Positions 13,029 to 60,614 of a stretch of DNA of 64,000 nucleotides are shown in pieces; position 1 is the stretch's first letter; every line of letters begins with the position of its first letter. The stretch is from the NCBI GenBank assembly GCA_964523485.1, contig CAZFZS010000001.1:148466-212465 (forward strand), written 5' to 3'. The notes beneath the pieces were generated by a model. The model was not told the origin of the DNA, did no database searches, and saw only the letters and a list, made by a program, of their open reading frames with translations. The stretch comes from an uncultured Phycisphaeraceae bacterium (GTDB lineage: Bacteria; Planctomycetota; Phycisphaerae; Phycisphaerales; Phycisphaeraceae). The translations under genes were made by a program, and so were the position numbers.

Positions 13029-14648
13029 ATGAGCAAAAGGATCATCATTGTTGGAGCGGGGCCGGGCGGTTTGGCGGCGGCGATGCTGCTGGCCAGGACC
13101 GGGGCGGAGGTCACCTTGCTTGAGCGCCGCGACCGCGTTGGCGGGCGGACGTCGACGATCACAACCGAGCAGGGATTTAAGTTCGACCTTGGCCCGACAT
13201 TCTTCCTGTATCCGCGGATCCTCGAAGAGCTATTTGCGATGTGCGGGCGGGACCTGCACGCCGAGGTCGAGATGGTTCGGCTGGATCCGCAGTACCACTT
13301 GGTGTTCGAGAAGAGGCCCACGGATACCATCCGTGGGCTTTGTGAGGTGGATGACATTTTGGCGACGCCCGACATCGAGCAGATGCAGGCGCAAATCGCC
13401 CGGATTGCGCCAAGGGATGCCGAGCGGTTTCCGAAATTTATTGCGGACAATAGGAAAAAATTTGAAGCGTTCACGCCGATCCTCCAGCGGCCATGGGAGA
13501 GCCTGCTGGACTACGCCAATCCCGGAATGGCGGGGATGCTGCCGCTGGTCCGACCTTGGGCGAGCGTCGATGCCGATCTCGGGCGGTATTTCAAGGATGA
13601 ACGCGTCCGCCTCGCGTTCAGCTTCCAGAGCAAATACTTGGGGATGAGCCCGTTCCGCTGCCCGAGCCTGTTCACGATCCTCAGCTACCTTGAATATGAC
13701 TATGGCGTCTACCACCCCACCGGCGGGTGCGGCGCGGTCAGCGAAGCCATGGCCCGCGTCTGCCGGGAGATGGGCGTCGACATCCGGCTGAACGCCGAGG
13801 TCACTGAAATGACTTTCGCACCCGGAAGTCATCGGTGCAATGGCATTCGTACCAGCGATGAAGAATTCCGGGGGGATGGCGTCGTGGTCAACGCGGACTT
13901 TGCTCATGCGATGCACAAGCTCGTGCCGGACCGCCTGCGTAAGCGGTGGACCGATCGCAAACTCGAAAGCAAGAAATATTCCTGCTCGACCTTCATGCTC
14001 TACCTTGGCCTGAACCTGCCCCCGGAAGCACTCAAGGGAGCGAGCCAGGCGGAAGACGGCCTGCAGCATCACACGATCTTCCTCGCCAACGACTACCCGA
14101 AAAATCTCGATGAGATCGAGAACCAGCACAAGCTCTCCGACAACCCGAGCATCTACATTCAGAACCCCGGCTTCACTGACCCGACCATGGCTCCCCCCGG
14201 AAAGTCCGCGATCTATGTGTTGGCCCCCGTCACGCATGAACACACTAACGTCGATTGGTCGAAGCAGGCCTCAGCTTTCCGCGAAAAGATCCTCGACCAA
14301 ATGCAGAAGCTCGGCCTGCCGGACCTGCGGCCGCACATCGAATACGAAAAAATGCTGACACCCGACGATTGGCGGGATGACCTTCATATCTACCGCGGGG
14401 CGACTTTTAATTTGGCTCACAACCTCGGCCAAATGCTGCACCGTCGGCCGCGGAATCGGTTTGAGGATTTGGAGGGCGTGTACCTCGTTGGCGGTGGGAC
14501 GCATCCAGGCAGCGGCCTGCCAGTGATCTATGAGGGTGCCCGAATCACCGCCCGGCTGTTGGCGGATGACTTGGGTCTGGACGCCGATTGGCTGACGGAT
14601 GAGCCAGCGACGGCAACGCCGGGGGTGGCGACGGCAATGAGGGGTTAA
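13029..14648 (+). CDS. crtN: CrtN/CrtI-family carotenoid desaturase (4,4'-diapophytoene desaturase-like)
   Basis: IIVGAGPGGLAAA, FDLGPTFF, SFQSKYLGMSP, YSCSTFMLYLG, GATFNLAH, GGGTHPGSGLP; ATG at 13029. Confidence 0.88.
   Translation: MSKRIIIVGAGPGGLAAAMLLARTGAEVTLLERRDRVGGRTSTITTEQGFKFDLGPTFFLYPRILEELFAMCGRDLHAEVEMVRLDPQYHLVFEKRPTDTIRGLCEVDDILATPDIEQMQAQIARIAPRDAERFPKFIADNRKKFEAFTPILQRPWESLLDYANPGMAGMLPLVRPWASVDADLGRYFKDERVRLAFSFQSKYLGMSPFRCPSLFTILSYLEYDYGVYHPTGGCGAVSEAMARVCREMGVDIRLNAEVTEMTFAPGSHRCNGIRTSDEEFRGDGVVVNADFAHAMHKLVPDRLRKRWTDRKLESKKYSCSTFMLYLGLNLPPEALKGASQAEDGLQHHTIFLANDYPKNLDEIENQHKLSDNPSIYIQNPGFTDPTMAPPGKSAIYVLAPVTHEHTNVDWSKQASAFREKILDQMQKLGLPDLRPHIEYEKMLTPDDWRDDLHIYRGATFNLAHNLGQMLHRRPRNRFEDLEGVYLVGGGTHPGSGLPVIYEGARITARLLADDLGLDADWLTDEPATATPGVATAMRG
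13316..13338. repeat. Family-A palindrome inside the crtN coding sequence
   Basis: GCCCACGGAT-ACC-ATCCGTGGGC, same arms as the copies at 11358 and 53380. Confidence 0.8.
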
Positions 14649-14826
14649 CCGCGAAGAACGCGAAGCGAACGACGAAAGCTTTTGACAGGATTGCAGAATC
14701 GAGTGAATAGATAGAATCAGATTTTTTGTTTTGTCGTTATTGGATTTTGCAAAAGCATCTGAATTTCGTCGATGTGATCGAATCGACAGCTTGAATTTCT
14801 TCGCGCTCTTCTCGTCCTTTGCGGTT
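14647..14826. repeat. AT-rich MITE-like element with imperfect terminal inverted repeats
   Basis: Left end AACCGCGAAGAACGCGAAG vs reverse complement of right end AACCGCAAAGGACGAGAAG (16/19); no coding capacity. Confidence 0.65.
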
Positions 14827-14876
14827 GATTGCTTTTCAACCCGCCTATGCTTGCAGGTAGTCAGCCGAGTGCATCT

Positions 14877-58925: not shown

Positions 58926-59050
58926 AACCGCAGATTACGCAGATCACACAGATTAAAAACTGATTTTCTCAATCAGATTTTAATCAGCGAAATCTGCGTA
59001 ATCTGTGTTCGAGGCTGTTTTCCCCGCGTAACTTTGCGAACTCTGCGGTT
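58926..59050. repeat. Nested inverted-repeat element (AACCGC...GCGGTT) with 9-bp units
   Basis: Perfect CAGATTACGCAGAT (58931-44)/ATCTGCGTAATCTG (58992-59005); outer AACCGCAG/CTGCGGTT. Confidence 0.8.
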
Positions 59051-59057
59051 TAATAAA

Positions 59058-60614
59058 ATGTCACATTTAGACCCCGCTATCAAATCCATGGACGACATCG
59101 TCGCGCTCTGCAAGCGCCGCGGGTTCGTCTACCCCGCCTCCGAAATCTACGGCGGCATCAACGGCTTCTGGGACTTCGGCCCACTGGGCACCGCCCTGAA
59201 AAACAATATCCGCGACCACTGGTGGCACCACATGGTCACCGCGCCACCCATCGGCCCGGACGGCCAACCCGTCGAAATTGTCGGCCTCGACTCGGCCATC
59301 ATCCAAAACCCCAAAACCTGGGAAGCCTCCGGCCACGTGGGGGGGTTCAGCGATCCGATGGTGGATGACCGCGAAACCAAATCACGATTTCGCGCAGACC
59401 ATGTCATGGTCCTGCAACCCAAGTCTGGCAATGGAAAAGCTTACGCCTACCTAGAAAATGACGATGCTGCAGTTCTCAAGCGACTCAAGAAAGATAAAGC
59501 GAGTCGCGACGATTACGAACAAGTCGCTTTGCTCGATCTCGATGTATCGCAGTATGAAAATATACAAAGTCCCGATGCGAAAGAGACTGGCACGCTGACC
59601 GAACCTCGCGAATTCAACCTGATGTTCATGACCTATGTCGGGGCATTGGCGACTGAGGACAACAAAGCTTACCTCCGCCCGGAAACCGCGCAAGGTATCT
59701 TCCTGAACTATAAAAACGTGCTCGACACGATGCGGGTGAAGGTGCCGTTTGGCATCGCGCAAGTCGGCAAAAGTTTCCGCAACGAAGTCACCCCCCGCAA
59801 CTTCATCTTCCGGGGGCGGGAATTCGAGCAGATGGAGATGGAGTGGTTCTGTCCCCCGGAAGAGTCACAGCAGTGGTATGAGTTTTGGCGGAACGAGCGG
59901 TTCAAGTGGTGGCTGACGCTCGGCGTCGCTGAGGATAACCTGACGCTGCGGGATCATGACCCGGATGAGTTGTCGCATTACTCCAACGCCACGGTCGATG
60001 TCGAATACAAATACCCCTTCACCGCCCCCGGCTACGGCGAACTCGAAGGCGTCGCCCACCGTGGGAATTACGACCTGACGCAGCACCAGACGCATGCCAA
60101 GGTCAAGATGGAATACTTCGATCAGGCCGCCCAACTCAAGGCGAAGGAAGCGGGCAAATCGAAGGACGAGATCGACGCGGTGAGCAAATACATCCCGCAC
60201 GTCATCGAGCCGGCCAGCGGCCTGACGCGGGCGGTGCTGGTGCTGCTCTGCGAGGCGTACACGCCCGACCCGGATCGGCCTTCCGGGGTGGTGATGAAAT
60301 TCAAGCCGAAGTTCGCGCCGATCAAGGCGGGCATCTTCCCGCTGGTGAATAAGGATGGCATGCCCGAGATCGCCCACAAGCTGTACATGCAGCTGCGCGG
60401 GAAGTACGCGGTGCAGTACGACGCGAAGCAGAGCATCGGCAAGCGTTATGCGCGGATGGATGAAGCGGGTACGCCATTCTGCATCACGGTCGATGGCGAC
60501 ACGCTCAACGATCAGGCGGTGACCATCCGGGATCGCGACACGGGGCAGGCGCTGCCGGAACGTGTGGCGTTGGACAAGGTCGAGGCGTTTCTGGCTGAAA
60601 AATTGGCAGGTTGA
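59058..60614 (+). CDS. glyQS: Glycine--tRNA ligase (alpha2 homodimeric type)
   Basis: KRRGF..EIYGG, WEASGH, YLRPETAQGIF, GKSFRNE..PRNFIFR.REFEQME, HVIEP, SIGKRYARMDEAGTP. Confidence 0.98.
   Translation: MSHLDPAIKSMDDIVALCKRRGFVYPASEIYGGINGFWDFGPLGTALKNNIRDHWWHHMVTAPPIGPDGQPVEIVGLDSAIIQNPKTWEASGHVGGFSDPMVDDRETKSRFRADHVMVLQPKSGNGKAYAYLENDDAAVLKRLKKDKASRDDYEQVALLDLDVSQYENIQSPDAKETGTLTEPREFNLMFMTYVGALATEDNKAYLRPETAQGIFLNYKNVLDTMRVKVPFGIAQVGKSFRNEVTPRNFIFRGREFEQMEMEWFCPPEESQQWYEFWRNERFKWWLTLGVAEDNLTLRDHDPDELSHYSNATVDVEYKYPFTAPGYGELEGVAHRGNYDLTQHQTHAKVKMEYFDQAAQLKAKEAGKSKDEIDAVSKYIPHVIEPASGLTRAVLVLLCEAYTPDPDRPSGVVMKFKPKFAPIKAGIFPLVNKDGMPEIAHKLYMQLRGKYAVQYDAKQSIGKRYARMDEAGTPFCITVDGDTLNDQAVTIRDRDTGQALPERVALDKVEAFLAEKLAG

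Follow-up and report, generated by a model that had tools for sequence, protein, structure and literature searches.

A hyper-abundant, non-palindromic 9-bp DNA word in one Phycisphaerae clade and in some phages

We describe a 9-bp DNA word, TTCCGGGGG, that is strongly over-represented in a 64,000-nucleotide stretch of an uncultured Phycisphaeraceae genome (assembly GCA_964523485.1, contig CAZFZS010000001.1, positions 148,466 to 212,465; hereafter the window), which belongs to a 394-kb JGI metagenome contig (sample 3300040801, Ga0450804_2477403). The window holds 18 copies (7 on the plus and 11 on the minus strand) at 16 places, against 0.54 expected under an order-3 Markov model, corresponding to a 33-fold enrichment. 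Over-representation of about 30 to 80 times chance was found in one Phycisphaerae clade and in some phages, and the word is a DNA-level signal without an amino-acid cause. Its kind resembles the known self-recognition words of Neisseria and Haemophilus, and for this lineage it is new: the searched library gave no link to the word itself, to planctomycete uptake sequences or to a planctomycete Chi, and no paper in it mentions the word for this lineage, in line with what an earlier note on this DNA had supposed. Our preferred reading, held tentatively and at less than even confidence, is a signal similar to the DNA uptake sequence (DUS) or the uptake signal sequence (USS), which a protein would recognize on double-stranded DNA and a directional process would spread.

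Of the hyper-abundant words in genomes, few are understood, namely DUS, USS, Chi and the FtsK-orienting polar sequences (KOPS), and HIP1 has remained unexplained after decades. The present word comes from a poorly studied phylum and shows clear signs of a directional force, including rare codons, a replaced invariant residue and arrays. A word-free sister clade, together with phages with and without the word, permits a comparative-genomics test of which DNA-binding, uptake or nuclease gene tracks it. In metagenomic data, the word is in addition a practical marker by which uncultured phages can be tied to this host clade.

Enrichment of the word in the window

In a k-mer scan of the window, TTCCGGGGG or its sub- or super-strings ranked first among the over-represented words at each k from 8 to 12. 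Shuffling of synonymous codons across 49 open reading frames (ORFs), repeated 500 times, gave 1.03 ± 1.0 copies of the core (maximum 6), leaving a 17-fold excess. The earlier note had started from the 11-mer ACTTCCGGGGG, whose nine copies compare with 0.17 expected under the same codon shuffle and 0.01 in dinucleotide shuffles; at no more than one mismatch, this 11-mer has 18 sites in the window against 1.4 expected. The Markov and codon nulls proposed in that note, now run on the window, both leave the word far above expectation. The enrichment proved stronger than had been claimed; the true unit is the 9-mer core with its 18 copies, of which ACTTCCGGGGG is the commonest extended form. The base composition assumed there was slightly too high, the window measuring 60.8% GC instead of 62%.

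The preferred context of the core is (C)AC-TTCCGGGGG-(C/T)G. Position -2 is A in 43-61% of the copies, position -1 is C in 46-72% and nearly never G, position +1 is C or T with A being rare, and position +2 is frequently G. These graded flank preferences indicate that ACTTCCGGGGG is the favoured extended form and no separate motif; a 13-mer form of the word is CACTTCCGGGGGC. The perfect core is enriched 33- to 77-fold in host and phage loci. Its 27 single-mismatch variants occur 18 times in the window, with about 17 expected, and 74 times in the motif-rich phage loci, with about 41 expected (1.8-fold), where positions 1 and 9 are the ones mostly altered. The combination of a sharp core and graded flanks resembles the recognition profile of a protein reading about 9-12 bp, as in DUS and USS. 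A general enrichment of G5 runs was ruled out, as CCGGGGG outside the motif occurs at expectation.

Effects on genes and proteins

All 18 copies in the window lie within ORFs, 8 in sense and 10 in antisense orientation, with six reading frames being used. The word differs from its own reverse complement and hence is non-palindromic; the earlier description of a non-palindromic sequence found on both strands and mostly inside genes was borne out. Sense readings are F-R-G, L-P-G and x-S-G-G, and antisense readings are P-P-E, A-P-G-K/S and P-R-K; the previously listed frames TSGG, LPG, APGS and PRK are correct, and usage extends to all six. The commonest frames among host and phage copies encode tolerant peptides (P-G, S-G-G), a preference parallel to what Findlay and Redfield reportedly found in 2009 for USS in Haemophilus proteomes. 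The codons at the sites are rare, with GGA, AGT and GGG making up 6%, 9% and 20% of their respective families.

The use of six frames together with the synonymous-codon shuffle indicates that the word is a DNA-level feature and no amino-acid artefact, as the earlier note had maintained. Local duplication, which the same note had named as a point to be checked, is not the origin of the enrichment, since only one of the 16 places (29700-29734) is tandem. Pro/Gly-rich linkers, which favour CCC/GGG runs, and this one tandem triplication could be taken as pointing to an amino-acid, codon, local-duplication or assembly artefact. Such an artefact is ruled out, its probability being practically negligible in view of the codon shuffle (1.0 vs 18), the six frames and the 16 places in unrelated genes. 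Moreover, the motif recurs in independent assemblies of other samples and studies.

In the glycyl-tRNA synthetase (GlyRS) of the window, both copies are located in the class-II motif 2, with no indel compared to solved homologues in the PDB. The F-R-G at the first copy is unique to the window protein, whereas F-R-S is found in 117 of the 120 best database homologues (FRGREF vs FRSREF). In the nucleotide sequence, TTC CGN TCG of the relatives corresponds to TTC CGG GGG of the window, a change of TCG to GGG. At the second site, relatives read GCC CCG GAT and the window CCC CCG GAA; the resulting C-P-P-E-E is shared with only one other of the 120 homologues. The DNA-level force overrides protein conservation in GlyRS. 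The earlier suggestion of a transposition target did not hold, as the sites lie in intact conserved genes without insertion or target duplication, and the alignment of GlyRS with its PDB and 120 database homologues revealed substitutions only. A repeat of the repetitive extragenic palindromic (REP) or miniature inverted-repeat transposable element type was likewise rejected, because similarity between copies ends after about 12-14 nt, all copies lie in ORFs and the GlyRS copies came without an indel.

Distribution among cellular relatives

The nearest named relatives of the window GlyRS are those of Algisphaera (75% identity), Mucisphaera (72%) and Poriferisphaera (70%), plus Tepidisphaeraceae, which places the source organism within the Phycisphaerae; the relatives of HemA are annotated as Planctomycetota metagenome-assembled genomes (MAGs). 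GlyRS identities divide the nearest relatives into a group comprising the window, P0002, P0003 and P0071 (80-82%) and an Algisphaera-like group. The window with a 5-kb extension holds 21 copies in 69 kb. The locus L255 has 7 copies at 3 places in 12.8 kb (0.22 expected), and L254 has one copy in 5.7 kb of DNA with 50% GC (0.04 expected). P0071, from a stromatolite metagenome, was picked solely by its GlyRS grouping, and enrichment was predicted before counting; in the 21.7 kb of its locus L336, 6 copies were counted at 3 places (0.22 expected). For the three loci of the Algisphaera-like sister group, L248, L249 (Algisphaera agarilytica) and L250, each covering 21.5 kb, the counts are 0, 0 and 1. 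Among close relatives, the word appears restricted to one Phycisphaerae clade, with a density of about 0.15-0.3 copies/kb. Two remoter Planctomycetota MAG loci (70% GC) have 3 copies in 16 kb, and the word is likewise enriched in a handful of unrelated cellular contigs from metagenomes, which encode PolA, MurJ, DegP-like and NfeD proteins. The sequence base for the source genome was about 69 kb, and that for the clade about 130 kb.

No alternative dispersed word that might represent a sister-clade "dialect" was found in 3 x 21 kb. The word GACAGGAT of L250 was rejected as such a dialect, being a REP-like intergenic element. The REP-like inverted repeat of L250, GAAGAATGTAGACAGGATGACAGGAT, lies in intergenic positions downstream of genes at 2892-2972, 11598-11672 and 14944-15023. 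L248 (GCA_030426385.1) carries intergenic G-rich 12-nt minisatellites, (GGGGGGGAAAGT / GGAGGGGGAAGT)n, at 12455-12490, 15866-15905, 17024-17060 and 17600-17740. Their reverse complement, CACTT(T)CCCCCCC, has CACTTCC in common with CACTTCCGGGGG, the 12-nt unit of the tandem array in the window, possibly by coincidence.

Gain of copies

L255 and L336 are syntenic with 81% nucleotide identity. Comparison of their orthologous sites for gain and loss, as the earlier note had proposed, revealed conserved copies plus gains. Both have conserved two orthologous intergenic copies in the spacer that separates pmp3 from a 2-hydroxyacid dehydrogenase gene. One of the two has grown in L255 from a single copy to (CACTTCCGGGGG)x3 (TTACTTCCGGGGG)x2, that is, from one to five, and the other is accompanied there by degenerate extra units. 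In L336, about 75 nt have been inserted between rplS and glyS and form a five-unit array, three units of which are perfect. A further copy was gained in a variable loop of the L255 GlyRS, changing L-Q-D-Q to L-S-G-G, and another in the aspartyl-tRNA synthetase (AspRS) of L336 through three substitutions (ATGCCGGAAGT to CCCCCGGAAGT). The threefold 12-nt unit in the intergenic array of L255 is identical to that of the coding array at 29699-29734 of the window, although the two places are non-homologous. In the phage loci, copies often form direct pairs spaced by 9, 12 or 18 nt. Three modes of gain are seen, namely clustered substitution, in-frame duplication and array insertion. The array had no BLAST match in plasmid or phage collections, for which low-complexity masking is a possible cause.

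Occurrence and orientation in phages

IMG/VR was scanned for one 14-mer form of the word, and at least 120 stretches matched. Among the matches listed, at least 16 stretches have four or more core copies, including L061 (18 in 14.6 kb), L008 (13 in 13.2 kb), L079 (10 in 12.3 kb) and, from the same sample as the window, L025 and L080 (7 and 5). L061/L256, L008, L079 and L080 are genuine tailed-phage genomes with one common module, in which a ParB-N6/N4 methyltransferase is accompanied by a large terminase of the gpA type, a portal of the lambda type, a protease-capsid fusion and a decoration protein; in L256, a major tail protein and the tape measure are present as well. Another representative of the motif-rich phages is IMGVR_UViG_3300033150_002214. 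A motif-independent sample comprised 80 loci with a portal at least 50% identical. Most of these have zero copies, and densities of 1.08 (L256), 1.46 (L257), 0.68 (L258), 0.70 (L311), 0.28 (L333) and 0.1-0.2 copies/kb (L265-L268) were found among the others. Enrichment in a few of the 80 portal relatives indicates that the word marks particular phage sub-lineages, with the host as its presumed determinant, and does not characterise the phage family as a whole. The ParB-methyltransferase was excluded as a driver and does not explain the word, as it is present at 60-70% identity in motif-free relatives. Sample 3300023283 contains the motif-bearing host locus L255 together with two motif-rich viral loci, and sample 3300040801 likewise combines a motif-bearing host with motif-rich viral loci; the phage hosts are presumed from the common word and the common samples.

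Based on crude ORF calls, which were used for all fetched loci, 21% of the copies in phage loci fall outside called ORFs, compared with 8% of non-coding sequence. The phage copies use six frames, 37 of them in sense and 49 in antisense orientation. Orientation is unbiased in the phages. Neighbouring copies lie on the same strand in 55 of 107 cases (51%) over all enriched loci, and in four related phages 16 copies are sense and 30 antisense relative to the head genes (P = 0.054). L260 (IMGVR_UViG_3300025161_000264), a member of the same portal-defined family, carries GCTGGAGG at 12 dispersed sites, all of them on the strand of the portal gene (12:0; about 2 expected). This word provides an internal positive control for the appearance of a Chi-like sequence in this phage family, and is itself a candidate Chi-type word of the host of L260.

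A relation of motif density to the GC content at third codon positions (GC3), as between native and recently acquired phage genes, was suggested by L061 but failed over all phage loci (0.72 vs 0.75 copies/kb). An opposite-strand block of small genes with a low GC3 of 0.61-0.64 lies between the terminase and portal genes at 6200-9730 of L061 (4888-8415 of L256); it contains zero motif copies, and the flanking head genes contain 17. When metagenomes were scanned for two close copies, about 10 of 120 loci were truly enriched, the rest being mostly unrelated local tandem repeats. Separate "dialects" in other members of the phage family were ruled out, as the other top words GTTCGGTAA, TGTGTGGTG and GACTGTTGG form local iteron arrays and are not dispersed. 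Long tandem arrays of 11-12-nt units (CTGTTCGGTAA / CCTGTTCGGTAA), probably representing iterons or repeats bound by the terminase, are located upstream of the portal region in two related phages, L304 (2380-2660) and L310 (288-410). In L318, TGTGTGGTG is clustered in a similar way at 2574-2770.

Possible function of the word

Length, graded flanks, fold enrichment, apparent strand neutrality, tolerant frames, protein effects, apparent clade restriction and phage accumulation make DUS and USS the best match among the known systems. Similar to DUS (Neisseriaceae, AT-GCCGTCTGAA) and USS (Pasteurellaceae, AAGTGCGGT), the word is non-palindromic, of 9-12 bp and with graded flanks, and would by extrapolation reach hundreds to thousands of copies per genome. 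Like them, it occurs on either strand, within genes and in several frames with tolerant peptides, appears specific to a clade and alters proteins. It also accumulates in phages presumed to reside in the clade, as uptake sequences do in temperate Pasteurellaceae phages (PMC6776037). The earlier proposal of a DUS- or HIP1-like signal is upheld as to the statistics, which are nearer to DUS/USS and HIP1 than to Chi or KOPS. That a protein reads the word, and that the directional process is DNA uptake, we infer only. We propose that a sequence-specific protein would read TTCCGGGGG on duplex DNA in either orientation, and that a directional process, either molecular drive or selection, would raise the copy number in whatever DNA resides in the clade. 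The process would be strong enough to force rare codons and amino-acid changes, and would favour in-frame tandem duplications and intergenic arrays. An uptake or recombination machinery preferring word-bearing fragments would let alleles with the word displace alleles without it, and resident (temperate) phages might gain the word in the same way or exploit it.

It is possible, if doubtful, that this Phycisphaerae clade possesses an uptake-type self-recognition system whose word is hyper-accumulated by siphoviruses, or else an undescribed, orientation-independent system by which host and phage tell self from non-self. If true, this would be the first uptake-type self-recognition outside the Proteobacteria, with a 9-bp word actively written into housekeeping genes, and siphoviruses infecting the clade would exploit the system, for example by entering through transfection or by passing as self.

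Several observations weigh against an uptake signal. The density in the unbiased phage sample (0.7-1.5 copies/kb) exceeds that of the host window (0.28 copies/kb), whereas Pasteurellaceae phages reach only the host level of uptake sequences (PMC6776037). Literature searches returned nothing relevant on competence or uptake bias in planctomycetes, a phylum without known competence, and no competence genes were found in the roughly 130 kb of clade DNA. The host window shows no halo of one-mismatch copies, whereas genomes with USS do show enriched single-mismatch copies. Unlike DUS and USS, the word does not form inverted pairs as terminators: the window has only two inverted pairs, both intragenic, and its terminator hairpins are built on other stems (AAGCCCACGGAT..., GGATGGCCATCC). 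The frequent tandem arrays are a further difference. Finally, the strand of the places switches from 1+/7- at 13.8-30 kb to 9+/2- at 35-69 kb (including the extension L001), with a best-split Fisher value of 0.0055 and a permutation-corrected P of 0.022, which hints at a polarity unexpected for an uptake signal.

Both the phage excess and this possible polarity would be accounted for by a Chi-like word, at which a host helicase-nuclease (RecBCD/AddAB type or an analogue) is switched from degradation to recombination, and for whose copies the chromosome and dependent phages are selected. The word is G-rich and non-palindromic, and terminase, portal and head modules of the lambda type occur in the motif-rich phages. 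Its spacing, about 1 per 3.5 kb in the host and about 1 per 1 kb in the phages, mirrors that of Chi in E. coli (1 per 4.6 kb) and in Chi-rich lambdoid phages, where Chi is the most frequent octamer (1 per 1.9 kb; PMC12315714). However, Chi is oriented 20:3 or 32:0 in those phages (PMC12315714), whereas the phage copies of the word are unoriented, in contrast also to the 12:0 of GCTGGAGG in L260. The strand switch in the window fits Chi, but neither a switch of GC skew or third-position skew matching it nor dnaA or another replication gene was found there, and the two skews gave no signal by which ori or ter could be placed in the window. In addition, known Chi sites are 5-8 nt long and 2-7-fold enriched, whereas the present word, with its 9 bp and additional flanks, is longer and shows roughly tenfold stronger enrichment. 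We consider a Chi-like function unlikely. KOPS and other architecture-imparting octamers that orient FtsK/SpoIIIE are also G-rich, asymmetric and chromosome-wide, and the window has one apparent polarity switch; these octamers, however, are weakly enriched, nearly fully strand-polarised and not expected to pile up in phages, whereas the word is strand-mixed over short distances.

The word might instead be the site of an abundant chromosomal protein, such as a nucleoid or segregation factor or a methyltransferase acting with short-patch mismatch repair, and owe its maintenance to selection or biased repair, independently of uptake. HIP1 of cyanobacteria (GCGATCGC) shows that such words can be under strong selection with no known function: it is 15-300-fold over-represented, intragenic, uses non-preferred codons and is conserved between genomes at some orthologous sites, traits it shares with the present word, and its function is still unknown (PMC5861425). 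The two intergenic copies conserved between species, and the arrays in the promoter-side spacers pmp3/2-hydroxyacid dehydrogenase and rplS/glyS, would agree with such a role. The CCGG/CCGGG contained in the core is typical of m5C/m4C methylase sites, but a non-palindromic site of 9 bp lies beyond the usual methylase or Vsr specificities, and the phage ParB-N6/N4 methyltransferase, which adjoins the terminase, does not track the motif. HIP1 itself is a palindromic octamer tied to CGATCG/GATC methyltransferases, whereas the word is asymmetric, with no methylase link found for the phage enzyme examined. Thousands of in-frame coding sites would also be odd for a regulator, and a HIP1-like or architectural role is improbable in our judgement. 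A self-expanding micro-repeat, in which a templated or slippage process writes units of 12-13 nt and coding copies survive in frame only, with no cellular function, would explain the identical threefold units at non-homologous places in two organisms, the one-to-five expansion in L255, the insertion of about 75 nt in L336 and the common spacings in phage loci. Most copies, however, are single and length-neutral, the two in GlyRS and the one in the L336 AspRS having arisen by substitution. No similarity extends past about 12-14 nt, and slippage alone cannot seed hundreds of unrelated sites. This explanation appears very unlikely, and the remaining probability belongs to an explanation of a kind not yet imagined.

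Copies and other features of the window

The nine exact copies of ACTTCCGGGGG located by the earlier note were all confirmed, as was the 15-mer ACTTCCGGGGGTGAT common to 23677-23691 and 37365-37379. Its six one-mismatch copies exist as well, but three others (14019, 18651 and 63331) had been omitted, and the perfect cores at 14194, 17654 and 28576 were absent from its list. The amine-oxidase-like gene 12906-14648 contains a near-copy with one core mismatch, ACTTCCGGGTG (13819..13829, minus strand), which forms an inverted pair with a perfect core in the context AATTCCGGGGG (13866..13874, plus strand, read F-R-G). Further perfect cores on the minus strand are GCTTCCGGGGG at 14019..14029 (antisense P-P-E), CTTTCCGGGGG at 14194..14202 (antisense A-P-P-G-K) and one at 17654..17662 (antisense A-P-G-K) in the FAD oxidoreductase gene 16351-18105, followed by the near-copy ACTCCCGGGGG with one core mismatch at 18651..18661 on the plus strand. 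Exact 11-mers on the minus strand lie at 19435..19445 in a glycosyltransferase gene, where GCC CCC GGA AGT with the rare GGA and AGT encodes A-P-G-S in antisense, and at 23681..23691 in the photolyase-related gene 23050-24609, where T-S-G-G is read in sense and the 15-mer is shared with the copy at 37365. A perfect core at 28576..28584 (minus strand, antisense P-R-K) is located in an M20 peptidase gene. The in-frame array (CACTTCCGGGGG)x3 at 29699..29734 on the minus strand holds the exact copies at 29700, 29712 and 29724 and encodes (APGS)3 in a low-complexity linker of the hypothetical protein 29189-29959. Within this array lies the break of a contig from a second sample.

In the second half of the window, the cytochrome-c assembly gene 34092-35093 carries at its 3' end an exact 11-mer on the plus strand (35067..35077, sense T-S-G-G). 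The hypothetical gene 36417-38780 carries three exact copies, at 37040..37050 (plus strand, sense L-P-G), 37365..37375 (plus strand, sense T-S-G-G) and 37877..37887 (minus strand, antisense A-P-R-K). Perfect cores on the plus strand are AATTCCGGGGG at 40779..40789 in the DUF6677 gene 40226-40834 (antisense P-P-E) and TCTTCCGGGGG at 58746..58756 in a variable loop of phosphoglycerate kinase (sense S-S-G-G). The GlyRS copies are located at 59806..59816 (plus strand) and 59853..59863 (minus strand) and form an inverted pair; C-P-P-E-E at the latter, read in antisense, corresponds to C-A/H-P-D-E in relatives. The near-copy ACTTCCGAGGG with one core mismatch lies at 63331..63341 on the plus strand.

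The gene content of the window is ordinary chromosomal, including ribosomal protein S2, phosphoenolpyruvate carboxykinase, phosphoglycerate kinase, GlyRS, HemA and TrpD, together with cbb3 oxidase assembly and polysaccharide synthesis genes. A tRNA-Glu (CTC) at 51129-51201 on the minus strand is the sole RNA gene found. Two hairpin families look like intrinsic, partly bidirectional terminators with common stems. One, AAGCCCACGGAT-loop-ATCCGTGGGCTT with A/T runs on its flanks, occurs at 11358-11385, 13317-13341 and 53380-53407, the second of these falling within ORF 12906-14648; the other, AAAGCCG..GGATGGCCATCC..CGGCTTT, occurs at 44657-44668, 47242-47253 and 51098-51109. The stretches 1-13800 and 40800-58700, which include polysaccharide and glycosyltransferase genes, are free of the core, and these gaps are only mildly unusual given 16 places.

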